The translations under genes and the position numbers were made by a program. This document shows, piece after piece, positions 1,940-38,030 of a stretch of DNA of 64,000 nt (position 1 is the stretch's first letter; each line of letters begins with the position of its first letter). The stretch lies in contig VRMN01000001.1 of NCBI GenBank assembly GCA_008690995.1, positions 3,224,001 to 3,288,000 on the forward strand. The letters run 5' to 3'. Source of the stretch: Porphyridium purpureum. Lineage: Eukaryota. Under the pieces are notes generated by a model. It had not been told where the DNA came from. It searched no databases and saw only the letters and a program-made list of their open reading frames with translations.

Positions 1940-4105
1940 GAGCTCCCAGCCGGCCAGCGGCGTGCTGCCCGGCGCGTCCCCCGCGCGACGCCAGCAAAGC
2001 GCCGAGCCGCTGGGCGACGTGCACCAGGGCCCCGTCTGATGTCGATGCCATCGCGTAACCGTCCGGCCCAGCTCTTGGTTTATCTGCCGCGCGGCTACGG
2101 TCTCGACACGACCACGCGTGCGCGTCCGCAGGCCAAGTTGTCGCGCCGCGCATTTCAAACGCGCGCGCGCGCGCGATCAAAAACTGTACTCAGAGGTACA
2201 GCTCGCGTTTGTGCGGGTCCATCACGGACGGGACGCGAGCCATGCTCGCTTGGCCTCGTTCATCTGGTGCGTCTTGAACCTCGAGCAACGCTCTTGCTGC
2301 GTTCATCGCATCAAACAAATACGCCGACGAGGCGTGTACCTGGGGCGTACGGTTGTCTGCGGTTTGGCACCCACGCAAATCGCGAGATCCCAGCCGGAAT
2401 GTTAGAGCCAGCCATACAACAGCTGCCGCGCTCTGTCCCCTCAGCGCCAGCAGCAGAAGCTCATAGCTACAGTCGCGTCGCCGGTACATCCTGGAGGTGA
2501 GTATTTTTAATTCTTGCTGAAACTTTATCAAAAAAAAATTCCTGAAAAAGAATGGTCAACGGACGACGGACATTATCTATGACCAGACCAACAGCCGGAC
2601 GCAAGAGAAAAGCGAACAGCGCCTCATGGTGCGTACATCGGCATGAGACGGAGAAAGTTTACACAAGAGGATTCGGGCAAATGAGCCTGCGTCGCTCCAG
2701 ACCTCCCTGTCCCGTGATGCAAATCATATAGACTTCACTACAGAGCTCGTTCCAGCCAGACCCCTGAGGCACCCCAATAGCGCACTCCACACCCACATAA
2801 GCGGAGCTGACGTCTGTGCACATGATGGACCCGAAACGCTTGCAAATTGTCCGCATGCGGTTTGCCGGGTCCGGGCGCAAACGATGCATGTTGCACGCTG
2901 CGAATGGATGTGCATCATGAGCGCTCGGTGCGCGCATATTACCCGGGACCTATAGCGGAGTATGCAAAGCCTTCTTTACGCACACATTCAAACCAAACAT
3001 GCACCGGAAATTCGCTGACGTGAAGCATGGATACCCATTCACACTTCTGCCACTTGCAGAGAAGGAACCAAAGGACCACGCAAAGTTGTACGCCAGGTCA
3101 TTCGTTTGGCAGCTACAGCTATCCACGCATGCGAGAGCGTGTAGCTCATCCAACGAGCCATGGCTTACTCCCGAAACGGAACTGTCACGCCGGCTCGCTT
3201 TCCGTCCGCGTCAATGAAGCTACCGCCCTTCGGATCGACGACCGCCACTGCTAGAGTCACGTTTCGAGGCTATGCCATGATGAACTGCAATTTATCCTCG
3301 CCCAGAGCTTTGTCAAATGCCGTCACACACGACTCAAACTGGCAGTGACGTGTGCATCACAATGCAGTCGTTTCCGGCGCAGTCCGACGATCATGGGGCC
3401 GGCTACTCATTTCCGGCTCTGGTGCCGACTCGTTGATCCTACCTTCCCGCAGCACATGCGCCGCGACGAGGTTTCCACAACCCGGCGGCTCTGGCCGAAC
3501 CTTTTGGTGCTTCGGAACCGGCTTGGCGGTCTGCATCCGTTTTTCTCCGCTCATGCCTTTGAGAAACATTGGCGATGAAGATACTGTGCACTAGCGCTTG
3601 GGAGGATCACCAGCGTCTGGAAAGAGTGAGCCGAATGGAATGCATGAACAAACCCCATCTTGGCACCCATGACATGTCTCGCTGAGAGGTGTTGTGGCCC
3701 CTGGTCGACCGCCAGACCGCCACGTTGAGCGGACACGAGAATGCAATCGTCACCGGCTGCGACAGCATCCGCGCACGCATGCGCATGAAAATGACGAACC
3801 ACGGCGTCGGTCGATTATTCGCCGGATATCACGGCTCTTCGACCGTGCCACGTTAGAACCTGCGCGTGCGCAAACCAACTGCCCCGCTCCTGGCGCGCCG
3901 ATGCCAAGCGCACGTGCCAGAATCAATGACAATCGCCAGTGTGCGGGAGTTGGACGAGGCCAGGACTTGCTCTCGGCTTCACGCACATCGAACCCAGCAA
4001 GGCCAAACCCCCAGAGGTACAGCTCTGTGTGCAGACTTTGGGCCTTTGCGGTGGAGATTGATCGCGTTCGACCGTGCGCGAACACGGTGGGGAGAGCGTT
4101 GCGGT

Positions 4106-4141
4106 AGCAGCAGCAGCAGCAGCGGCGGCGGCGGCGGCGGC
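4106..4141 (+). repeat. (AGC)n(GGC)n trinucleotide microsatellite directly before the ATG at 4142
   Basis: agcagcagcagcagcagcggcggcggcggcggcggc read directly. Confidence 0.85.
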
Positions 4142-6619
4142 ATGGCAGATGGTGCGAGTACTGTTGATTGGGACGGCCATATGAATATTGGTCAGCATGC
4201 TCTCGATGATGCGTCGCTGAAGTCGGCACACACGGCTCTCGAGAACGATGTTGTCCGCGCGTCGCGCCGCGACCATATCTCTGCCGCCGGACATGGCCAT
4301 GGCTATTTGCCGCATCTGGATGGCCTGCGCGCGCTCGCGCTGAGCGGCGTGCTAATGTTTCACTTTGGGCGCAGCGGATTCGGCGCAGGTGGGTTTATCG
4401 GCGTCGACATGTTTTTCGTCTTGTCGGGCTTTCTCGTCACGCGCAACATTCTGGACGATATTCTGCAGGACACCTTTTCGTTCCGCACCTTTTATCAGAG
4501 GAGATTTTGGCGGCTTTACCCGAGCTCGCTCTGTACAAGCGTTTGCGTGCTTGCTGCATCCATATACTTGCTTTCCGGCAATTTACTGAAAAGCTCGCTT
4601 CGATCAGTAGCTGCCAGCATGATATCGTTGTCGAATGTGCTTTTTTACTCAGAGGCCGGATATTGGGACACCGGGGCAGAGCTGAAGCCCCTTTTGCATA
4701 CGTGGTCCCTTTCGATTGAGGAACAGTTTTACTTCCTGTGGCCAGCCATGTTGACCCTGGTGGCGCGTGCTCCATTTCTCATAAATGTTCCACCAGCACG
4801 TAGGCTGTACGCTTGGGGTAGTATTTTTGGATTCTGCGCCGTGCTAGCATTTGCGTGGGCATGGCAATACGAAAGCGTCGATGCGTCCGGCGCCTTCTTT
4901 TTGCTTCCTGCCCGTGTGTATCAGTTTGCCCTTGGCGCCGGCCTGCTCGGTCTTTCAGAGCAATTGCAAAATCATAACGGACTACTCGTCGATATCGCGA
5001 GTATCTGTTCTGTGGCGACGTGCGTGGCGTCATTTTTCTATCTTGGACACGACACCGGGAATGGTTTCGAGTCCTCATCGCCCATCGCACAGCTCTTTTC
5101 AGGAATCAAGGCGCTTCCCACGCTGCTCGGAACCGCGCTGCTGATTTTGTTTCCGAGCTCCATTGTATGTCGGCTAGTCTTGTGCAATAGCTTCATGGCT
5201 CATGTTGGACGTGTTTCATACACTCTGTATCTCGTGCACTGGCCCATCCGCGTTTTCTTGGGCTTTGTGGCCACCACTATGCCCTTCGCACATGGCTGGC
5301 TGGACCACTGGTCGATCATGCTTGCACTCACAGCGGTCACGGGCATGGCGCAGTATATCCTTGTGGAAAAGCGCCTGAGGACACGCGAAGCTGTTCCATA
5401 CAAGTTCTGGCTTGGGATCGGATTCACTATGTGGTCCGCTTTCGCGGTGGTTCTCTGGGTGCTTTTTGTTGGTGATGTTTCGAGTGACCATCATGCAGGT
5501 GGTGTGCACACGCCGACACAGACGGGTATCAATAGCACGGTGTATGATGCACTGATTGCTCTGGAGCGCCCTGATGGAAGTAAGGAGTACATTCCCCGTG
5601 CATTTGTGAATGTGACGCGCCTTGCGTATCGTCAGTATCCAAACGGTCAGTTGACAGACGCTTTTCCACCTCCGAGATGGATGAATGATATGAATAATGA
5701 TACGGAGTGGGATATTGTTGCGAAGCTTATCGAGCGCGCATCACCAGTGCCCCTGAGACAACGGCTTTCGCCCAGGGACACTCTTATTCTGCTTCGAAAC
5801 TGGGGTTACATTTTCTTAACGAATGATATGCATTTTTGGTGGTGCGAAAAAAGCGGTATTGCAGCTGACATTTCAATTGGGGGCCTTTATCCGTGCGTGC
5901 TAGGAGACGCGTCCAAGGCACCGAGCGCGGTCATTATTGGTGACAGTGAAGTGTTTGCGCTCAAACCCGCACTTTCATTTGTCGGCAAGGAGCTGGGCGT
6001 GTCGATATGGTCGGTTAACAATGTGGCTTGCGTGATGGCCTTTGAGAGCCAGAAAGACATCCATACACCGGAATCGTACGACCCCAATCAGCCTTTGGAA
6101 AAGCAAGCTTGCAAGTTGCAAACTATCGCGGCACGAAAAGTCGTGGAATCGTTGCCGCGTGGAACCGTAGTTTTCTTGGACTTCCTGTCCAACGCCTGGG
6201 TACAATACTATCGGCAGGGCACGATCATGTATGCATCGGAGATTAATTATCTACGCAGCCTCGGTCTGCGAATTGTATTTATTGGCACCTTACCGTGGAA
6301 AAGAGGACCGGGTAGGTGCTTGCCAAACTTGAAGCCGCCTCGAACCGATTGCATCGAGCCCACAGGCCAGGAGTTCTACGATGACTATAAAGTCACGCGC
6401 GACTTCATCGAAAATGTCCTGAATCTGACATATGTGGACCTGGCCGATCCGTTTCGTGTGCACCCGGGGTCGGATGAAAATAATTTCACGTGGGCGGTGG
6501 ACGGATTTCCATTGCTCTTTGACGATAGACACGTGAACATAGCCGGCTCTCTGTACGCTTCGAATGTGATTGCCGACATGTACCGAGAGCATTTGCTCGG
6601 GCACGGAGCGAAAGAATAG
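4142..6619 (+). CDS. Acyltransferase-3 (OafA/OatA-like) membrane O-acyltransferase with C-terminal SGNH domain
   Basis: Motifs YLPHLDGLRALA, GFIGVDMFFVLSGFLVT, FYQRRFWRLYP and HTWSLSIEEQFY, many transmembrane segments, then SGNH motifs IIGDS and DDRH. First ATG in the frame is at 4142 (the ORF track starts at a GTG, 3866). Confidence 0.92.
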   Translation: MADGASTVDWDGHMNIGQHALDDASLKSAHTALENDVVRASRRDHISAAGHGHGYLPHLDGLRALALSGVLMFHFGRSGFGAGGFIGVDMFFVLSGFLVTRNILDDILQDTFSFRTFYQRRFWRLYPSSLCTSVCVLAASIYLLSGNLLKSSLRSVAASMISLSNVLFYSEAGYWDTGAELKPLLHTWSLSIEEQFYFLWPAMLTLVARAPFLINVPPARRLYAWGSIFGFCAVLAFAWAWQYESVDASGAFFLLPARVYQFALGAGLLGLSEQLQNHNGLLVDIASICSVATCVASFFYLGHDTGNGFESSSPIAQLFSGIKALPTLLGTALLILFPSSIVCRLVLCNSFMAHVGRVSYTLYLVHWPIRVFLGFVATTMPFAHGWLDHWSIMLALTAVTGMAQYILVEKRLRTREAVPYKFWLGIGFTMWSAFAVVLWVLFVGDVSSDHHAGGVHTPTQTGINSTVYDALIALERPDGSKEYIPRAFVNVTRLAYRQYPNGQLTDAFPPPRWMNDMNNDTEWDIVAKLIERASPVPLRQRLSPRDTLILLRNWGYIFLTNDMHFWWCEKSGIAADISIGGLYPCVLGDASKAPSAVIIGDSEVFALKPALSFVGKELGVSIWSVNNVACVMAFESQKDIHTPESYDPNQPLEKQACKLQTIAARKVVESLPRGTVVFLDFLSNAWVQYYRQGTIMYASEINYLRSLGLRIVFIGTLPWKRGPGRCLPNLKPPRTDCIEPTGQEFYDDYKVTRDFIENVLNLTYVDLADPFRVHPGSDENNFTWAVDGFPLLFDDRHVNIAGSLYASNVIADMYREHLLGHGAKE

Positions 6620-7023: not shown

Positions 7024-8670
7024 TCAATCCTGGACCAACGGTGAGTACCGCGATGTCTTCAGAAAATTTTCCATGCACTTATCGTGGTCTGGAAATACAA
7101 CATTCGGGCACAAGTCCCTCTTGAACGATTTTGGCACGCGGTGCACGTGTGTGCCGAGCTCAAAGTATGCATGCATGGCCCATGCGCGATGCATAATGGT
7201 GTGTGCTTGGAGCACGACTTGCATACCGTTCGCACGAATACTGTCGATATATTTCGCGTTTTCCGGGTTGGTCACAAATGCAATCATCTCGCCCGGCGAG
7301 ATCGAATCGTAGGCGAGAAAGTGCGTCCCATTGATGATTCCGTGACCAGCGAGCAGATCGACGGTGTCGCTGTTGGGCATTGCCAACACGCCCACGGCCA
7401 TCGCTTCGTAAATCTTGGACACCAAGAAGAAGGTATCCCTCGTGTCAGCCAGCATGGCCACATAAGGCCGAATGGACTCTGCAAACTGCATGGCGGTGGT
7501 CGATGTGTAGTTTCCAATGTACCCTGGGTGGTCGATGCGCACGACAACGCCTAATTGGCGTAGGTTTGTATGCAACCAATCGCGGAGCGGGTATTCGTCG
7601 TTGATCCGTCCCGGCAGCGATGCGGCGCGCATCGCATACTTATTGAAGGTGTAGTAATGCAAATACTCTGGGGCAGCTGCATGCGGGATCCACACGAGCT
7701 CGACCGAATTCGGACTCGGAGGACTGGGAAGCGTCGCCAAATAGTCCCACAGGCGGTACACGTATGGCCCCATGTACACGTCAAATGCGTCGAAGAAATC
7801 CTTGATCATGCGGGGGCTCATATATAGCTTGAACGTATGCAGGTCATCATTGAATAAGGCAAGCTTGGTTCCTGGGTGCGCGCGTTTGTACTCATACGCG
7901 TGGACAAGCGCATGCTTGTGCTGCACAATGGGCACACATACCACCAGCACATCGGGGACGCCAAAGGTGCGATTAAAAAGCGCATCGTCCATGAACTGCA
8001 CTCGTGTCGCGAACTTCCACCCATATGCATTCTTGAGTCCATCGAACAAATAGTAGTAGCTACGAAGGATCTGCGTGGCTGGGAGATCACGCGGATTCGT
8101 CGTGTCGAGGCACTCGATACCTACAATGTTTTTCCTGCGCGGAAGTTGATCCGGCTGGATATTGAGCGACGCAAAGATGCGAGCCAGTTGCGCGCCATCC
8201 ATCTCATGAAGATCCCGCGGAACACGCCACTGAAAGTAGAGCGGATGTTCCGTCGCATTCTGTGTTTGCGTCTGTGTCTGCGGCGGAGCCGCAGTCGCCG
8301 GTGCTCCTGATGCCGTCGGTTGGGTACTGTTTGGTAGGACGTTTTTCTCTCCTGATCCTGGTCCTGGTCCATTGATCGCGGCAGCAAACGTGTTCGGAAC
8401 GACGTGCTGAGCAGAGTAGGTTTTTTCTTGCGCAGACGAAAACAGAAAAGCCAGGCTTGTCTGCATTTTCCTCAGGGCCCGCGCGTTGACTTGCTCCTCG
8501 CCGACGGAGAACGCGAGCACCCCCACGCACAGAACGAGCGCGCACACAAATGCAAGCAGCACGACCGATGCGGGCGTCCCGCCGCGCCGAGCATTTTGTT
8601 CAGTCGCCGTCGCAGGAAGCTGCTCGGCTCCTGCCCGAAGCGTTCGGAACGGCTTCCGCTCTGTCGTCAT
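7024..8670 (-). CDS. Type II membrane glycosyltransferase, GT-B fold (Glyco_trans_1_2/CgeB-YkvP-like C-terminus)
   Basis: Short N-terminal tail, one TM helix (VVLLAFVCALVLCVGVLAF), Thr/Pro/Gln stem, then SKIYEAMAVGVL, GTHFLAYD and IRANGMQVVLQAHTIMHRA. ATG at 8670. Confidence 0.75.
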   Translation of the reverse strand: MTTERKPFRTLRAGAEQLPATATEQNARRGGTPASVVLLAFVCALVLCVGVLAFSVGEEQVNARALRKMQTSLAFLFSSAQEKTYSAQHVVPNTFAAAINGPGPGSGEKNVLPNSTQPTASGAPATAAPPQTQTQTQNATEHPLYFQWRVPRDLHEMDGAQLARIFASLNIQPDQLPRRKNIVGIECLDTTNPRDLPATQILRSYYYLFDGLKNAYGWKFATRVQFMDDALFNRTFGVPDVLVVCVPIVQHKHALVHAYEYKRAHPGTKLALFNDDLHTFKLYMSPRMIKDFFDAFDVYMGPYVYRLWDYLATLPSPPSPNSVELVWIPHAAAPEYLHYYTFNKYAMRAASLPGRINDEYPLRDWLHTNLRQLGVVVRIDHPGYIGNYTSTTAMQFAESIRPYVAMLADTRDTFFLVSKIYEAMAVGVLAMPNSDTVDLLAGHGIINGTHFLAYDSISPGEMIAFVTNPENAKYIDSIRANGMQVVLQAHTIMHRAWAMHAYFELGTHVHRVPKSFKRDLCPNVVFPDHDKCMENFLKTSRYSPLVQD

Positions 8671-10005: not shown

Positions 10006-11493
10006 ATGGACGCGCGCGTAGCCTGGTTGACAGGGAGCCTGGCGAAACAGCAGGCACGGATGGCAAGCCGGAAGCGCTACTGGGTTCACAGGCGCACGCG
10101 CGATTGTATGAACCAGCAAGGCCCCTCCTCGTGCTGGAGGACAGAGAAGTCGGACAGAGCCAGGCAGGAACAGGACGGTGCTAAACCTTTCCCGGAAAAA
10201 AGTGGGCGCTCGCGTGCACACGTTGAGCCGCACGACGTCCACTCTGAACTGGCAAGCATGGCTGTATATTACCCGGCCCTCTTGGCAGCAACATCAAACC
10301 AGCCCCACCTTCACCCGGATATGACCGGCTGGGCTCGTTGGCCTCAACCAACGACAGGTGGACTCGATAGCGTTGACATTTCTCCGGAAGTCAACTCTTG
10401 GCGTCTGACGAAGGATTCAAGGGGGAGCGCAAAACTACCATCAGCTGCGATCACGGAATCAGCGGAGAGGTTACCGGGCGTCGCTGAAATTCTTTCCACC
10501 AGCGAGGATGTGATTTTCGTGGAGAGTGGCTCTAGTCAGGGCACCGCCTTTTGGCACCAAGCGGCCAGCTGGAGCCCATCGGCAGCTGTGCGCAAGTCGT
10601 CCTATTTTGGTGCTGACCGCTCGTTGCATGAACAGGTACGCACGGAGCAAGGTTTGAGTTCGAAGGAGAGGGCGCTACCAGCGCCTCTTCAGCACGTAGG
10701 GTCAGCGCCTGCTGCGCAACCCTACTCGGAACGACGGCGGAATCCAGTCCCTCTGAAACCAGAGGAAGGGGCCCCAGGTCCCGGGGTATTATCAGACAGC
10801 CTGCCTTTGGGTTCCAGCCATCATCGTCAGCCACGTGGGCTTGCTTCCGCATCGCAGTCAGTGGGAAATCGTGAACCTTTGATTGTGCAGCTCCAGGAAC
10901 TACGGCACCAAGCACAGCCGTTGGTGCAAGAGTTCCAAAAATCCGACTCCCATTCGGGACTTGGTCAAAGCATGCATGGCATCCTCGAGGGCTTCGGTAG
11001 ATCCGGTTTGAATCCAGAAAGACCCTCTCCACAACAGACAAGTACCGGCAACAGCGGCTCTGCGGAGGCGGGCGCAGCTAGTCGGTCACTCCTTGGCAGA
11101 CGCCAATATTCACGGCGGCAGTATTGGACACCGGAAGAGGACGAGCTGCTCCGTACGCTCGTCGCCTCTTTGGGACCGACTGATTGGCCCAGCTTGTCCG
11201 CCAAGATGCCTGGTCGCTCGAGCAAGCAGTGTCGCGAGCGCTGGCTCAATCATTTGCAGCCATCTGCACACAAGAGCGCGTGGACAGCAGAGGAGGATGC
11301 ACTCATTGCGCAGCTGCACAGCCAGCACGGCAACAAGTGGCGATTAATTGCGCAATATGTGCCCGGGCGGTCTGACAATGATATCAAGAACAGGTTTCAC
11401 GTGACGCTGCGCCGCCTGAAGAAGGAGCAGCGAGGAGAGTTTTCAGACCTGGATAGCGCGTTCATGGCCGAAAAGCGATCATCGTTTCAGTAA
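10006..11493 (+). CDS. R2R3-MYB transcription factor, copy 1 (start uncertain: ATG 10006 or 10258)
   Basis: Two MYB repeats: WTPEEDELLRTLV..W..GRSSKQCRERWLNHL and WTAEEDALIAQLHSQHGNKWRLIA..GRSDNDIKNRF. Confidence 0.93.
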   Translation: MDARVAWLTGSLAKQQARMASRKRYWVHRRTRDCMNQQGPSSCWRTEKSDRARQEQDGAKPFPEKSGRSRAHVEPHDVHSELASMAVYYPALLAATSNQPHLHPDMTGWARWPQPTTGGLDSVDISPEVNSWRLTKDSRGSAKLPSAAITESAERLPGVAEILSTSEDVIFVESGSSQGTAFWHQAASWSPSAAVRKSSYFGADRSLHEQVRTEQGLSSKERALPAPLQHVGSAPAAQPYSERRRNPVPLKPEEGAPGPGVLSDSLPLGSSHHRQPRGLASASQSVGNREPLIVQLQELRHQAQPLVQEFQKSDSHSGLGQSMHGILEGFGRSGLNPERPSPQQTSTGNSGSAEAGAASRSLLGRRQYSRRQYWTPEEDELLRTLVASLGPTDWPSLSAKMPGRSSKQCRERWLNHLQPSAHKSAWTAEEDALIAQLHSQHGNKWRLIAQYVPGRSDNDIKNRFHVTLRRLKKEQRGEFSDLDSAFMAEKRSSFQ

Positions 11494-13170: not shown

Positions 13171-14451
13171 ATGTCTGTCGTTGGAGCAATTATGGATATA
13201 CATCGTTTTGAAGGCCCGCATCGATTTACCAATGCCAGTGAACAGGCGCAGCTGATGTCCACACCGCCACTGGTGAATGCGCGTTTGCCGTTAGAGGGCA
13301 CGTACATGGGGAGGGATAGTGCAAGCGCGTCACCGTGGTTCCACGCGGAGTGCCGTGGGCGTGTCGAAAGTGACTTTCCGCCTTCCGCCAGTCCGCAGCC
13401 ATGGTCAAAGTCCATGCTTGGAAGTTCAGTGTCACTGGTATCCGAGCCGTCTGAGCGACGGGAGAAGTTGCCGAGCATCGCTGAACTGCTGGTTGAAGGC
13501 GAGCACGTCAAGTCTGGGCTCCACGACTTTGACGGCAGCTCCGCACTTTTGCGGAACTCGTTCAAATCTGCTGACGCGCGCACGCAGTCATCACGAGCAA
13601 GTCGCAATGCACACGGGCTGCCGCACATGGAGCCCGTGTTGGCTACGACTGATCATTCGCGGCCCGTGCTCACACAACGAGCGGGTAGAGTACCCGTTAT
13701 TCGGGCTTCGACAGACGTGGCTGGGCACTTGGTTCTTCAGCGACGACAGGAATACGTTCCTGCTGTGCATGACCCTATCCTCAGCCCCCTACAGACATTT
13801 GGGCTTTACAGGCAGTCATTCGCGGCCGCGAATCATGGGCATGCGAGTTCTCCGGTACCACAGATGCAGGGACGTCAGGAACAGTACAGACAACATCCAA
13901 CACCGCCAGGACGTCAGCCATCGATGCATGGAGGCTTAGGATCGAACGTTACGCCTATCCAGCCACCTACCACGTCCGGCACGGCTTCGAGCAGATCGCC
14001 TCGTCACCAGGCAAGTTCTGAGAACAGCAGCTCCTGGGAGGCTGGTAAAGCACATCAGGCGTCCCATGCACGACGCCCTTACTCACGACGGCAATACTGG
14101 ACGCCGGAAGAGGACGAGATGCTGCGTGTGCTTGTGGATTCAATGGGACCGGCTGATTGGCCCAATTTGTCCGCGAAAATGTCGGGCCGTACCAGCAAGC
14201 AGTGCCGCGAGCGCTGGTTAAACCACTTGCAGCCATCTACACACAAAAGCGCGTGGACAGCAGGGGAGGACGCACTGCTTGCGATAATGCACAGTCAACA
14301 CGGCAACAAATGGCGACTAATCTCGCAGCACATGCCAGGGCGGTCTGATAATGATATCAAGAATAGGTTCCATGTGACTCTACGTCGTCTGCACAGGCTG
14401 CAGCGAGCCGAAGTCTTAGACACAGAAAGCGCTTTTACGGCCGGAAACTGA
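13171..14451 (+). CDS. R2R3-MYB transcription factor, copy 2 (tandem paralogue)
   Basis: WTPEEDEMLRVLV..GRTSKQCRERWLNHL..WTAGEDALL..GRSDNDIKNRF; DNA-binding domain very similar to copy 1. Confidence 0.93.
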   Translation: MSVVGAIMDIHRFEGPHRFTNASEQAQLMSTPPLVNARLPLEGTYMGRDSASASPWFHAECRGRVESDFPPSASPQPWSKSMLGSSVSLVSEPSERREKLPSIAELLVEGEHVKSGLHDFDGSSALLRNSFKSADARTQSSRASRNAHGLPHMEPVLATTDHSRPVLTQRAGRVPVIRASTDVAGHLVLQRRQEYVPAVHDPILSPLQTFGLYRQSFAAANHGHASSPVPQMQGRQEQYRQHPTPPGRQPSMHGGLGSNVTPIQPPTTSGTASSRSPRHQASSENSSSWEAGKAHQASHARRPYSRRQYWTPEEDEMLRVLVDSMGPADWPNLSAKMSGRTSKQCRERWLNHLQPSTHKSAWTAGEDALLAIMHSQHGNKWRLISQHMPGRSDNDIKNRFHVTLRRLHRLQRAEVLDTESAFTAGN

Positions 14452-16694: not shown

Positions 16695-17585
16695 CTAAGA
16701 CACGGCCGCAACACGCTCGGACGGCTTTGAAGAGGTCGACAAGGAAGTTGCAGGAGAGGTTGCCGGCGAAGCGTTGGGACGCTTGTGGCGCGGCACGTAC
16801 CGGCGGTCCTGGTACTCGTCGAGCCACGTTTTCTTCACAAGATCTGGTGTATAATTGCACTTCAAGTACGCGTGCACATGCAATCGGTTCCTGGGTTGGG
16901 CGTGGGGCTCCACGGGCTCGGCAGAAACCGGGCTTTCAGCGCCGTCATCCACATCCACAGGGATTACCTTGCGCGTGTAGTTCACGCCAATGTTCTCGAG
17001 CTCGTCCAGCTTGGCGAGCTCTCCGTCGTCCACAATATACACTTCGCCTTTAACTTTCTGGCCTTTTCCCTGCATGTTCAGCAGGTACGGCGAAAACCAA
17101 GGCCCGCCAACAACAAGAGGGTACTGCTGCACCGTCCGGAACTCGCCCACAAACATGGCATTGCTAAGCAGGTGCGAGTTTGGAAACGAACGCTTCAGCG
17201 TTCCATAGACAAACACCAGGTGCCACGATCCGCTCGCCTGGTTCAGGCAACGAACGAGTTCATTCATCAATTCAGAGGTGCCGTCCGCGTGCAAGATGCC
17301 GGTAGCCATTGTTGACGGATGAGCAACCTTCGCCACGCCGACCGCAGCGCTTGCAACGGAGTGACCATTGACGTCCGCCGGTTTCTTCTTCGTGTCCGTA
17401 TGCATCTGGGCCGCGCACGATAGCGACACCGAGCCGAGCGGACGCTGGTGGAGATGCGCACCCACGTACTGCCCCGTGGCAGACGTGCGACCTCCCGCTC
17501 CGCACGGAGCCGAGCGCGGGCTCGCTCTTCCGGTCGAGGCGAGGACCGCGCCGACGTGTACTACCGGTGCCGCTCCAGAAATCAT
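16695..17585 (-). CDS. Gamma-glutamylcyclotransferase (GGACT/AIG2-like)
   Basis: VFVYGTLKRSFPN, KVKGEVYIVD and LDELE..YTR motifs. First ATG at 17585. Confidence 0.9.
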   Translation of the reverse strand: MISGAAPVVHVGAVLASTGRASPRSAPCGAGGRTSATGQYVGAHLHQRPLGSVSLSCAAQMHTDTKKKPADVNGHSVASAAVGVAKVAHPSTMATGILHADGTSELMNELVRCLNQASGSWHLVFVYGTLKRSFPNSHLLSNAMFVGEFRTVQQYPLVVGGPWFSPYLLNMQGKGQKVKGEVYIVDDGELAKLDELENIGVNYTRKVIPVDVDDGAESPVSAEPVEPHAQPRNRLHVHAYLKCNYTPDLVKKTWLDEYQDRRYVPRHKRPNASPATSPATSLSTSSKPSERVAAVS

Positions 17586-18203
17586 TCTTTGGCACGAAAA
17601 ACCCTGAACCCGATTCTCAAGCAGGAAACTAAAAGCCCAACGCACACCACGTGCGATACTCAACACCGTCTCAAGAAAGCGTGCGAGCCGTGATCTTTCC
17701 GCGTTTCCGGAATGAGTCGTTCCTCTTGATAAGCATCTAATACTTCAGCAACCTATTGCGCGTTGCTGCTCATCCCACGCCGGACCGTGTGCGCCTCTCT
17801 CCACTTCACCTAACCCGCGCTGTCCGATATCTAGACCATCCAGACGAATCGTCGTCCTTACTCCCACCCGCCTGTTCCCCTGTTTGTAGTACGCTCCGCT
17901 ACTTAACCCACCGAGCCTTTTAATAGCTGTTGCGGCTGCCGCTGCCACCCGTCTGCTTTTTCTATCAAAACAGCCCTGCGCAATCACAAACACGCACGCT
18001 CACCACCAGACGCTCGCGCGCTCTTCCCGCCCAGCCTTTTCTTGTTAATTCAGGAAAACGAGGTGTACACTAAGACTTGATGGGGGTACAGCCGTTAATA
18101 CAAAAAACCCGCCGAGTGATTCACCACGTCAGCGCGTATTCCCTCGAACGCACTGTACCGTGTCGCTCCTCCCACACGTCGCAGATTCTACTCAACATAC
18201 AAC

Positions 18204-18211
18204 TATATAAA
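18204..18211 (+). promoter_or_regulatory. TATA box of the permuted tRNA gene
   Basis: TATATAAA about 30 nt upstream of the leader needed for the BHB (18239 onward), followed by CAA motifs at about 18231-18237. Confidence 0.7.
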
Positions 18212-18249
18212 CGCTATTTTTTCCCTTCCACAAACAAATTTCACGGAGG

Positions 18250-18355
18250 AACGGTCGGCCGCAGTTCGATCCTTGCAGAAGGGGAGTTTCTGCGTATGGG
18301 CATAGAATCGTTTGATTACGCCCGTATGGCTTAGTGGTAGAGTTACCGTTTCGTA
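18250..18355 (+). tRNA. trnT-CGU: Circularly permuted tRNA-Thr(CGU): 3' half 18250-18302 (with T-loop intron 18271-18288), spacer 18303-18319, 5' half 18320-18355
   Basis: Reassembled 71-nt cloverleaf: GCCCGTA TG GCTT AGTGGTA GAGT T ACCGT TTCGTA|A ACGGT CGGC CGCAG TTCGAT|T CTGCG TATGGGC A. Acceptor stem 7 bp (one G-U), anticodon stem 5/5, T stem 5/5. G1-C72, C2-G71 and A73 fit tRNA-Thr. Confidence 0.92.
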
Positions 18356-18366
18356 CCTGAGAACTC

Positions 18367-18371
18367 TTTTT
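18367..18371 (+). terminator. RNA polymerase III terminator (T5)
   Basis: TTTTT 12 nt after the end of the 5' half, just beyond the BHB-forming trailer. Confidence 0.75.
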
Positions 18372-19851
18372 GCCGGTTGGAAAACATCACTGATCATGTC
18401 TCAATAATTCGCGAGACGATCTCCAACATGGCTCCGTAGCGACAAGCAAAATTGCATGCAGCGCAACTCGCTCCGTACAATGTGCTACGTTTCGCGGGCC
18501 GCGGCCTAACACTACAAAACTCAGTTTGTCTCTCACAGTCTGCGCGCGGGCGCTGCGATGCGACTGCAGATATGGTCTGCGACCGCGCACTGGGGGCGAA
18601 TTCAGCTAGGCCACGCGAGCTCAGCGCATATTCAAAATTTCGGTCCCCCCCAAGGCCAAGCTGTCACATGTCTTCAGGCCCATTCAGAATTGATTCTTGG
18701 TAGGGCCTGCTTGTGCAGTGTTTACTAGGTGGGCGTTGCGCATTTTGGACCAGCGGCATAAACAGGCGCAACCCGCGCGCACTGTCGAAAGAAAGAAAGA
18801 TGATGCTCGGAAGCCTTGTGTTCCTCGTGGCCAACCGCGGTCCGCGCTGTTAAATGAATGTTTCTTGCTCTCGTCTGCAAGGACCCTAGATCCTTGAAGC
18901 CTCGTCATGACCCCGCTGGCTGTTGCTGAGAAGAGCATACACACAGAATGCGAAAGCAAGGAATACTGAGCATCTGCTTGTCGTGTGTGCTCATTCCGCT
19001 ACCAAAGCAGTGGATGGCGATAAATGCTTTTGGACACACTGCAGCACGCCTGTTCGGAAGAGTAAGAGCCATGAGGGTGCGAAATGGACACAAAAAGTCG
19101 ACCATGGCATCGAGGAACCTTTCAGAAACCCCAAGCATGTTCGTTTACCTCCCGATTTGCCCCACTACTGACAGTCGGCATTAGTGTCCTGCCCCGCTGA
19201 TCTACCGAATTTGCATCTGCGCCGCCCATTCCATAGCGCGCGTGTCCTGACAGAGTCTGCGCATCTCGCCCAACTCTCTCTCGGCAGCCGCACAGCACGC
19301 GCCACAAGCCCGGCTTGGCCACTCGCACAGCGACTCCTGCTTGTTGCCATACCCGTCGCGCGCGATGAAGCGCGTCGTGCTTGTTCTTCCAGCTGACATC
19401 CGGATACGCTAGAAGCCTGTCGATGTTCGCATACGCCTTATACTGGTCCATACGCATGGCGCTCTGATTCCGTGAAGCTCCATGCCACGCACGCGGCGGT
19501 CACACCGACTCCATAAGTACACCGACCGGCACTGAACACCCATCTAGTAAACCACGAGCGTTTCACGAGACAAACACGGTGCGATTTAGCGTGCTGCTTC
19601 GTTTTGGTGCCGCGTCTGGCTCGAGACGCCGAACGTGCGACGCGTCGGTTTGCCAGCGGCTGCAAGCGGTGATGGCAGACGGAGACGCACATGTAAAAAG
19701 CGCATTCGCAGCTGCTTAAAGCAGCCATGGACGCAGCGTCTGCAGCCGCGCGTGGCAGTTCGGCTCTCCAAGTACATCGGCACGCGGTGAGAGCGACGCG
19801 CAGAAAGACCGGACAAGCGGCACAAATCCTGCAGCGGCACAGGCGGCAAGC

Positions 19852-20466
19852 ATGCAGTGCTTGCGCGGGTTCTACCGCATTCTGACGCTCGAAGCTCCGC
19901 CGTCAAATGAGCCTCGAGGACGCAACGGCCCACCGGGTTCTCCGAGCCCGCCGCCCACTGTGGGGTTTTTGGTGCTGAGTACAGGCGAGCAGACAAAAGA
20001 GTTCGCAAGGACATACAAGCACTTGTTCGTGTATCCGAGCCTGTGGGGCCCGGAAGCAATCGAGCTCGACGCATGTATGCCCGCGTGCATCTACCCGAAT
20101 CATGTACTGCGAAGCGCCCAGGCCCACGCGCGAGCGCAAAGCGAGATTCCCACAAAATGCGTGATATGCATGGAGGACTTTCACGACCGCGACATTGTGC
20201 GTTCGATGCCATGTCACTGGTCCCATATCTTTCACTCGCTCTGCGTCGCGTCTTGGGTCTCTGCGTACGATAAGAGCTGTCCAGTCTGTCGGATAGACTT
20301 GCGCAGATTCAAGTATCCGCCGCCGCCGCCGCCGCCGCCGCATCTTGAGCAAGACGCACCAAGGCCTCGTGGGAATCATCGTCCGAAAGGGGAAGAAAAC
20401 ACTGCAGCCACGGGCGCCGGCCACTACTGCTTTCTCGATATTGACAGCGCGAGACACAAGGACTGA
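19852..20466 (+). CDS. RING-H2 zinc finger protein (probable E3 ubiquitin ligase)
   Basis: CVIC..PCHWSHIFHSLC..W..CPVCR followed by poly-Pro. Confidence 0.85.
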   Translation: MQCLRGFYRILTLEAPPSNEPRGRNGPPGSPSPPPTVGFLVLSTGEQTKEFARTYKHLFVYPSLWGPEAIELDACMPACIYPNHVLRSAQAHARAQSEIPTKCVICMEDFHDRDIVRSMPCHWSHIFHSLCVASWVSAYDKSCPVCRIDLRRFKYPPPPPPPPHLEQDAPRPRGNHRPKGEENTAATGAGHYCFLDIDSARHKD

Positions 20467-20518: not shown

Positions 20519-21190
20519 TCATGCAGAACTGGCGGCAGCTCGCCACACGTCCAGATCGTCAGGAGTGTCCACATCCGGTAACATTTCCAGGAGCATGACC
20601 TTTAGTGCCATGGCGCGCGCCTTTTCCATCGTGGCACAAAAAACCGTGCTTGTGCTCCACTGAATTCCTTCAAACACGTTTCTATGCAGCTCTTGCATGC
20701 CTAGTAAATAGTAGCCGCCGTCCTTTGCGGGCCCAATCACGAGGTCGGCTTGCTCGCTCTCGAGCGCATGAAATGCGGCAGAGATATGTTTTTCCGCGCA
20801 CAGACCAGGCGCATCGGTGCCCACTACAAGAACGTGCGTCTGGTGAAGGTCATTGAATGCCTTCCGAAACGACGTCGCCATTTTTGCCCCGAGGTCTACT
20901 CCCGGACCAGAGCGCTGCGCCCCGAACATAACCGCGCGGCCGGAATGGAAGAACGGTCGCAGCCACGTGTCAAACCACTCGTGCGCGTGGTCGGCATCCG
21001 CACTGGCGTACTCAATCATTACCGTGATCCGCGGATTGCACCGATCGACGCGGCGAATGCAGTGCTCTGCCATCTGCCTGCTAGTTTCCGCAGCGCCATC
21101 CGCGCCCAGCGCCGGGATTAGTCGCGTCTTGGCAAAGCCAGGTTTGGGCTGTTTGACATACACAATCACACACGCCCTGCTTGTCGCCAT
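20519..21190 (-). CDS. DUF2064/TIGR04282-family transferase (annotated in bacteria as arsenosugar-biosynthesis glycosyltransferase; CofC-like fold)
   Basis: KQPKPGFAKTRLIPALG, DLGAKM, VVGTDAP, VIGPAKDGGYYLLGM, FEGIQWST and DVDTPDDL. Confidence 0.88.
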   Translation of the reverse strand: MATSRACVIVYVKQPKPGFAKTRLIPALGADGAAETSRQMAEHCIRRVDRCNPRITVMIEYASADADHAHEWFDTWLRPFFHSGRAVMFGAQRSGPGVDLGAKMATSFRKAFNDLHQTHVLVVGTDAPGLCAEKHISAAFHALESEQADLVIGPAKDGGYYLLGMQELHRNVFEGIQWSTSTVFCATMEKARAMALKVMLLEMLPDVDTPDDLDVWRAAASSA

Positions 21191-37662: not shown

Positions 37663-37878
37663 TTACTTATCCGGATTGATAGCGTCCGACGCCGTCTTCT
37701 GCGCGTTCTTCGCTTTCTCAGAGACGCTGTTTGCGGCGTCTCCAACGTTGGCCTGCGCGGCATCCTTCGAGGCCTCGGCTGCGTCCTTTGCGTCCTGCTT
37801 TGCCTTCTCGGCCTTCTCTTCCGGTGTGCGCTCCACCAGGCCCACGGCCACTCCTGCGTTATGCAATGCGTCCTGCAT
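37663..37878 (-). CDS. Small hydrophilic LEA-like (group 3-like) protein, 71 aa
   Basis: Ala/Lys/Asp/Glu-rich amphipathic repeats (KAEKAKQDAKDAAEASKDAAQ), good ATG context (ttcaacATG) and an upstream TATA box. Confidence 0.7.
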   Translation of the reverse strand: MQDALHNAGVAVGLVERTPEEKAEKAKQDAKDAAEASKDAAQANVGDAANSVSEKAKNAQKTASDAINPDK

Positions 37879-38022: not shown

Positions 38023-38030
38023 TTTATATA
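38023..38030 (-). promoter_or_regulatory. TATA box for the LEA-like gene
   Basis: CTATATAAAGG on the minus strand about 150 nt upstream of the ATG at 37878. Confidence 0.55.

Follow-up and report, generated by a model that had tools for sequence, protein, structure and literature searches.

The 64-kb window, by which we mean the whole stretch of DNA analyzed, is eukaryotic, densely packed with genes, and poor in introns, and it includes Myb, UTP20, SUN, SNF2, and GcpE genes. Between a gamma-glutamyl cyclotransferase gene (16695–17585, minus strand) and a RING gene (19852–20466, plus strand) lies a locus, 18204–18371, that is, as predicted from its sequence, a type II circularly permuted nuclear tRNA-Thr(CGU) gene that also contains an intron (Table 1). 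An earlier note on this DNA had proposed a permuted gene of this identity, with the 3' half upstream of the 5' half. All of the coordinates and pairings that it gave are present in the sequence, and the upstream TATA box and downstream T5 run that it described are both there.

Table 1 Predicted features of the permuted tRNA-Thr(CGU) gene, in window coordinates
Feature	Position	Strand	Remarks
TATA box, likely RNA polymerase III promoter element	18204–18211	+	Promoter role proposed from C. merolae (PMC3978253, excerpt)
Pyrimidine-rich stretch including a T6 run	T6 run 18217–18222; upstream of the predicted start	+	
Predicted 5' leader	18232–18249	+	Outer-helix strand 18239–43, central-helix strand 18244–47, bulge bases 18248–49
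3' half, exon 1 (positions 38–59)	18250–18270	+	Anticodon stem 3' strand, 4-nt variable loop, T-stem 5' strand, T-loop to 59
18-nt T-loop insert, likely protein-spliced intron	18271–18288	+	At 59/60; folds into a 4-bp hairpin and a bulge-helix motif of the relaxed type
3' half, exon 2 (positions 60–73)	18289–18302	+	T-stem 3' strand, acceptor 3' strand, discriminator A73
17-nt intervening sequence (spacer), closes the acceptor stem	18303–18319	+	4-bp hairpin, 18306–09 with 18314–17
5' half (positions 1–37)	18320–18355	+	D arm with A box; anticodon CGT 18352–54
Trailer	18356–18366	+	Contains outer-helix strand 18358–62
T5 run, likely polymerase III terminator	18367–18371	+	

The TATATAA of this gene is the sole plus-strand copy in the window; two copies lie on the minus strand. 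Transcription would start near 18232, the first A of a CAA located 28 nt past the start of the TATA box, and no run of four or more T residues occurs between 18232 and 18366. With a TATA box upstream, a T-run downstream, and no signal between the halves, the locus is by sequence a single transcription unit. The B-box consensus is uninterrupted in the DNA at 18264–18272. The acceptor stem pairs 18320–26 with 18295–301 (7/7 pairs, one G·U) and the anticodon stem pairs 18345–49 with 18251–55 (5/5 pairs); the 3' strand of the latter starts one base past 18250, which fits a junction at 37/38. CCA is not encoded at the end of the 3' half. The length of the spacer falls inside the 1–74 nt range known for type II intervening sequences, and the pairs of its hairpin have probabilities of 0.82–0.97.

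Other features of the window were recorded as well. The shorter TATATA occurs at 38025–30 and 59368–73, where it precedes or falls within protein-coding sequence, and at 7821, which by coordinates is inside the ORF 7024–8670. An Ala/Lys-rich ORF of about 70 aa at 37663–37877 (minus strand) has a clear TATA box (38023–38030) and no Pfam match; we take it to resemble LEA-type stress proteins. Tandem genes at 10006–11493 and 13171–14451 each carry two Myb repeats near the C-terminus. At 3926–6619 an Acyltransferase-3 domain is fused to an SGNH domain, presumably an architecture mainly of bacterial O-acetyltransferases. The gene at 20519–21190 (minus strand) encodes a DUF2064/TIGR04282-family glycosyltransferase whose named homologues are mostly bacterial (35–40% identity), with one match from Gracilaria; it is possibly a transferred gene.

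The window was searched with an isotype-free scanner for type II permutation, which looks for a 5' half that follows its own acceptor strand, T arm, and anticodon strand, and which allows a T-arm insert of 0 or 8–40 nt and at most one mismatch per stem. On both strands of the window it found one locus, with a spacer of 17, an insert of 18, and 21 of 21 stem pairs. When dinucleotide shuffles were searched in the same way (n = 400, both strands), eight gave a match, each 2–4 pairs short, and none of the 400 equalled the gene. A profile of 112 ordinary tRNA-Thr genes aligned 18320–18355 with model positions 1–36 (E = 1.2e-4) and stopped there, at A37; the interrupted 3' half was not detected, and the next-best match in the window had an E-value of 1. 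ARAGORN and Rfam gave no matches on the unrearranged window, an outcome in keeping with a split gene and one that the earlier note had foreseen for standard scanners. When the halves were swapped and the 18-nt insert was removed, ARAGORN called a 71-nt tRNA-Thr(cgt). Scanner, profile, and ARAGORN together support the permuted tRNA-Thr(CGU) reading first proposed. The rejoined form with the insert kept gave no call. Among deletion variants, ARAGORN called 113 of 1026, mostly those removing 16–20 nt around the T-loop. Neither the scanner nor the Thr profile revealed further hidden tRNA genes in the window.

The rejoined tRNA has G1-C72, C2-G71, and A73, which we take to be Thr identity elements; T26 opposite C44, and T32, are presumably atypical for a eukaryotic tRNA-Thr. 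When compared with the invariant consensus bases listed in PMC3978253 (excerpt), it retains T8, A14, G15-C48, G18G19, T33, G53-C61, T54T55C56, and A58. The mature cloverleaf is not the lowest-energy fold (−21.7 vs. a minimum of −25.2 kcal/mol). No diverged relative was found that could supply covariation. Viral contigs contained no exact 23-base match. When metagenome contigs were scanned for permuted tRNA-Thr with degenerate criteria, at least 119 loci were returned; among the matches listed, 112 were ordinary genes whose 3' half was contiguous, six had their own acceptor strand downstream (three of these with an insert in the anticodon loop), one (L101) had none, and no permuted tRNA-Thr was present. 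In L101, positions 373–408 form a tRNA-Thr(CGT) 5' half, and the 120 bases that follow contain no acceptor strand to match it; an element that integrated into the gene has likely left this half as a scar. At the metagenome loci L012, L055, and L079, the anticodon of a tRNA-Thr(TGT) gene is followed by an insert of some 20 nt, probably an ordinary 37/38 intron in each case.

The earlier note placed the 3' half, A38 to A73, correctly at 18250–18302, and left unstated that this stretch is 53 nt rather than 35, with 18 extra bases in the T-loop. The presence of this insert means that a second splicing event would be needed. Its removal would yield the 71-mer of the earlier note and restores a 7-nt T-loop, and the registers 58/59, 59/60, and 60/61 all keep T54–A58. 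Removal at 58/59 (18270–18287) and at 59/60 leads to the same product, and removal at 60/61 to a different one. In the 59/60 register the modelled fold has an intact T stem, an exact 3-nt bulge on the 3' side, and 3 of 4 central pairs (with a G-G mismatch), at −9.2 kcal/mol; this geometry favors a cut at 59/60. A motif of strict geometry is found in a different register, at −4.0 kcal/mol, and cutting there would excise 20 nt and shorten the T-loop to 5 nt. As a separate matter, the proposal that the insert arose from the tRNA 3' end as a degenerate copy was rejected, because 30% of shuffles scored equally.

At the 37/38 junction, positions 32–35 (18350–53) pair with 18244–47 to form a central helix (4/4 pairs, one G·U), and 18358–62 pair with 18239–43 to form an outer helix (5/5 pairs, one G·U). 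The 3' site lies within a 3-nt bulge, 18248–50; the 5'-splice side has a bulge of 4 nt rather than 3. The register of this terminal motif is the one required for a cut at 37/38. In 200,000 random draws from the window, a central helix was obtained in 3.5% and a central helix together with a 5-bp outer helix in 0.06%. U32 faces an A three bases ahead of the junction, a placement that by the position rule we take to be that of the anticodon-intron pair of eukaryotes. That pair is named in PMC4090602 (excerpt).

Folding with ViennaRNA gave a competing duplex, which extends the anticodon stem, an energy of −14.4 kcal/mol vs. −8.3 kcal/mol for the terminal motif, and the pairs of the central helix had a probability of 0.00. 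The precursor was no more stable than its shuffles (z = −1.17). The candidate bulge-helix-bulge that the earlier note described at 37/38 has the right register, 4-bp helix, and 3'-site bulge, a combination improbable by chance, but its 5'-side bulge has 4 nt and it is not the lowest-energy fold. The terminal motif is of the relaxed type. In Cyanidioschyzon merolae relaxed motifs are normal, and the 37/38 motif is the weakest and is processed last (PMC3728597, excerpt).

Several properties of the window point to its host. Its GC content is 55.4% and its GC3 is 0.62; the genome of Porphyridium purpureum has 22 Mb, a GC content of 0.559, and a GC3 of 0.648 (PMC10496412, excerpt). Of 14 window proteins that were looked up, nine are present in NCBI, UniRef, and EukProt. 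Porphyridium aerugineum supplies the best named homologue of the GcpE protein (76%). A quick maximum-likelihood tree with 59 rows (55 best matches, the query, and three named cyanobacteria) joined the window protein and that of P. aerugineum as sisters (SH-aLRT 96), away from Cyanidiococcus, Cyanidium, Galdieria, Rhodosorus, and Gracilariopsis. The DNA is not that of P. aerugineum itself; a Porphyridium host is very probable, and P. purpureum is the likely species. C. merolae resembles the window in GC content, but its Thr(CGT) gene has a longer spacer (31 nt) and no intron. The tree agrees with the view, put forward from the sequence at the outset, that the DNA is from a red alga outside the Cyanidiales. 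A GGACT tree left the placement of the window unresolved, and searches with the window proteins found no close genomic relative.

For P. purpureum, tRNAscan-SE 2.0.9 listed 30 genes, none of them for Thr and two undetermined (supplements of PMC10496412, excerpt). By our own tally of that list, Asn, Asp, Cys, His, and Trp are also missing, and several of the predictions are unusually long (PMC10496412, Table S4d, excerpt). The same source gives tRNAscan counts for Thr(CGT) of 0 in C. merolae and Cyanidiococcus, 2 each in Galdieria, Chondrus, Gracilaria, and Gracilariopsis, and 8 in Porphyra; some of the genes counted may be organellar or come from contaminants. Among Thr codons in 21 ORFs of the window, ACG is used most often (225 of 606) and, because no Thr gene is listed, a hidden gene is needed. 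A second Thr(CGU) gene, with only an intron, may exist elsewhere in the genome, which probably conceals many further disrupted tRNA genes.

The order of the halves was examined in independent sequence data by comparing reads and contigs from 8 of 24 runs, none of them marked as source; five runs from five studies span the gene. The contigs of runs X4, X5, X7, and X16, from four studies, span both halves with zero differences in 18246–18375. They extend over 18146–18627 (X4), from 18236 (X5), from 18246 (X7), and over 18245–18597 (X16), and their differences are confined to 18376 and 18384, outside the gene. The X9 contig also spans the gene and has two differences, one at 18384 and the other not placed. 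The X17 contig covers 18281–18431 without a difference, and the X15 contig begins at 18377. The permuted order is genomic and is not an assembly error, a possibility that the earlier note had allowed for. There were 10 variable sites in 1351 nt, and the strains are too alike to show selection.

The starts of four contigs cluster at 18232 (X9) and at the X5, X16, and X7 positions given above; X4 continues upstream. This clustering fits a transcript boundary at the predicted start, a weak hint because the contigs are strandless, the run types were guessed, and the end of a convergent polyadenylated transcript lies nearby (18377). In the RNA run X24, 25 raw reads fell on the stretch, from about 18330; none covered 18055–18302, and no joints were seen. 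The small-RNA supplements of PMC4981961 (nine files) contained no matches for five exon motifs; an insert motif had eight matches, and the two among the matches listed were unrelated.

Two of the contigs carry loose homopolymers at their ends. The X15 contig has 20 loose T residues before 18377, a sign of a polyadenylated minus-strand transcript whose end lies 6 nt beyond the tRNA terminator. Pfam gave no match to any of nine short ORFs in 18387–19902, and this transcript, convergent on the tRNA gene, may therefore be non-coding or represent a long 3' UTR. The X9 contig (4478 nt), which begins at the predicted start, has 18 loose A residues ahead of it on the plus strand, and these may be a library artefact.

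We consider it highly probable that the locus is a permuted, insert-bearing nuclear tRNA-Thr(CGU) gene, likely of P. purpureum, that likely yields a working tRNA by the Cyanidioschyzon route. Transcription, every processing step, and their order are proposed by analogy, with the order of maturation modelled on C. merolae, in which a TATA box and a T-run likewise flank the permuted genes (PMC3978253, excerpt). RNA polymerase III, directed by the TATA box, would transcribe the gene from about 18232. The T-loop intron would be removed first; leader and trailer would then be cut at the 37/38 motif and A37 joined to A38, producing an 88-nt ring. RNase P would cut before G1 and tRNase Z after A73, with release of the 17-nt spacer. 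After addition of CCA, the resulting 71-nt tRNA would read ACG.

The intact state of all 21 stem pairs and of the invariant bases, together with the TATA box, the T-run, and the correctly registered terminal motif, argues against a non-functional relic, in which an intron-containing tRNA-Thr was duplicated in tandem and lost its outer halves, and in which ACG is read by a tRNA-Thr(CGU) from another hidden gene or by wobble of a tRNA-Thr(UGU). Permuted genes are proposed to originate by duplication and loss (PMC3978253, excerpt), but no remnant of an outer half was found in the leader, spacer, or trailer (shuffle p 0.06–0.93); of eight mononucleotide-shuffle tests, those on the 100 nt that precede the TATA box returned 0.01 and 0.03, which was not counted as a remnant. 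Such a relic would be consistent with the relaxed splice motifs, which are not the lowest-energy fold, with the absence of the exon motifs from the small-RNA supplements, and with the 25 X24 reads, none of which lies over the 3' half. The tRNAscan list of P. purpureum, however, holds no Thr gene, and we regard a relic as unlikely.

A functional gene might instead mature differently, either by trimming of the ends first, to give a nicked tRNA whose two pieces are ligated at 37/38 with no ring stage, or by cutting of the insert at 60/61 or in the strict 20-nt register. The intact acceptor stem bears a stable hairpin formed by the spacer, and end-processing enzymes might act early; but RNase P and tRNase Z need a folded T arm, so that the T-loop intron must leave first, and rings have been detected for permuted tRNAs of red and green algae (PMC3978253, excerpt). 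Two registers do compete in the T arm, but the 59/60 fold is stabler than the strict 20-nt fold (−9.2 vs. −4.0 kcal/mol). We judge these other routes to be very unlikely. An assembly artefact or a chance arrangement can be dismissed, given the contigs from five runs, each of a different study, in which both halves are spanned in the permuted order, and given the outcome of the shuffle test.

The preferred reading, a functional permuted gene processed by way of a ring, has known relatives. C. merolae has a type II permuted tRNA-Thr(CGT) (Soma et al. 2007, per Table 1 of PMC3978253, excerpt) that is like the present gene in its anticodon, 37/38 junction, order of halves, upstream TATA-like element, downstream T-run, and lack of an encoded CCA. 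By the description in that table, the C. merolae gene, which belongs to another red-algal class, has a spacer of 31 nt and no intron, whereas the gene described here has a spacer of 17 nt and an 18-nt T-loop insert. The tRNA-Gly(CCC) gene of C. merolae, like the present gene, combines type II permutation with a T-loop intron, a relaxed motif, and two sequential splicings, and its T-loop intron is removed first (Soma et al. 2013, PMC3728597, excerpt). Its intron is at 55/56 and has 13 nt, and its spacer has 7 nt, compared with 58/59 or 59/60, 18 nt, and 17 nt here; the isotypes also differ.

Chondrus crispus, also a red alga outside the Cyanidiales, has tRNA introns in the T-loop (58/59) and D-loop (20/21), and splicing of its tRNA-Trp was confirmed by RT-PCR (PlantRNA 2.0, 10.1101/2021.12.21.473619). 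Its T-loop intron position is the same as, or adjacent to, the one found here, but it is stated to be without permuted genes (PMC13578239, excerpt). Permuted tRNAs are also known from Ostreococcus, Micromonas, the Bigelowiella nucleomorph, and Thermofilum pendens (PMC3978253, excerpt), and from Auxenochlorella (PMC12633428, excerpt), which the list of hosts in the earlier note lacked. In all of these the gene order is as here, with those of the green lineage mostly type II. Thermofilum is type IV with an encoded CCA, and the 2014 table has no Thr isotype among the non-red permuted tRNAs (PMC3978253, excerpt).

No prior report of permuted tRNAs in Porphyridium was found in the openly searchable literature; the gene may already be annotated in a subscription journal, a tRNA database, or a bioRxiv supplement. 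In the available excerpt of a 2026 review, C. merolae is the sole red alga named as having permuted tRNAs, Porphyridium is unmentioned, and the choice between ancestry and convergence of permuted tRNAs is called unresolved (PMC13578239); PMC13353863 contains no more than a citation (excerpt). The architecture and mechanism are already known, and what appears to be new is the red-algal lineage, outside Cyanidioschyzon.

The permuted gene offers a reason for the failure of tRNAscan-SE to find a Thr gene in P. purpureum. It also predicts more hidden tRNA genes, in which case analyses of tRNA counts in this species (such as PMC10496412) rest on an incomplete set. As a mesophilic red alga with a Chondrus-like T-loop intron, the host provides a second red lineage for comparing ancestry with convergence. 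Because this tRNA is permuted in C. merolae too, and at an identical junction, shared ancestry is testable. The agreement in anticodon and junction is suggestive but weak, since 5 of 42 C. merolae anticodons are type II, or about 12% by chance (PMC3978253, excerpt). It is possible, although we hold it tentatively and with some doubt, that the 37/38 permutation of Thr(CGU) here and in C. merolae represents one inherited event that predates the split of the Cyanidiophyceae from other red algae and was later undone in Galdieria and in the seaweeds; in that case an entire set of permuted, multiply interrupted tRNA genes would lie hidden in Porphyridium. If this is true, permutation would be the ancestral red-algal state and not an oddity of extremophiles.
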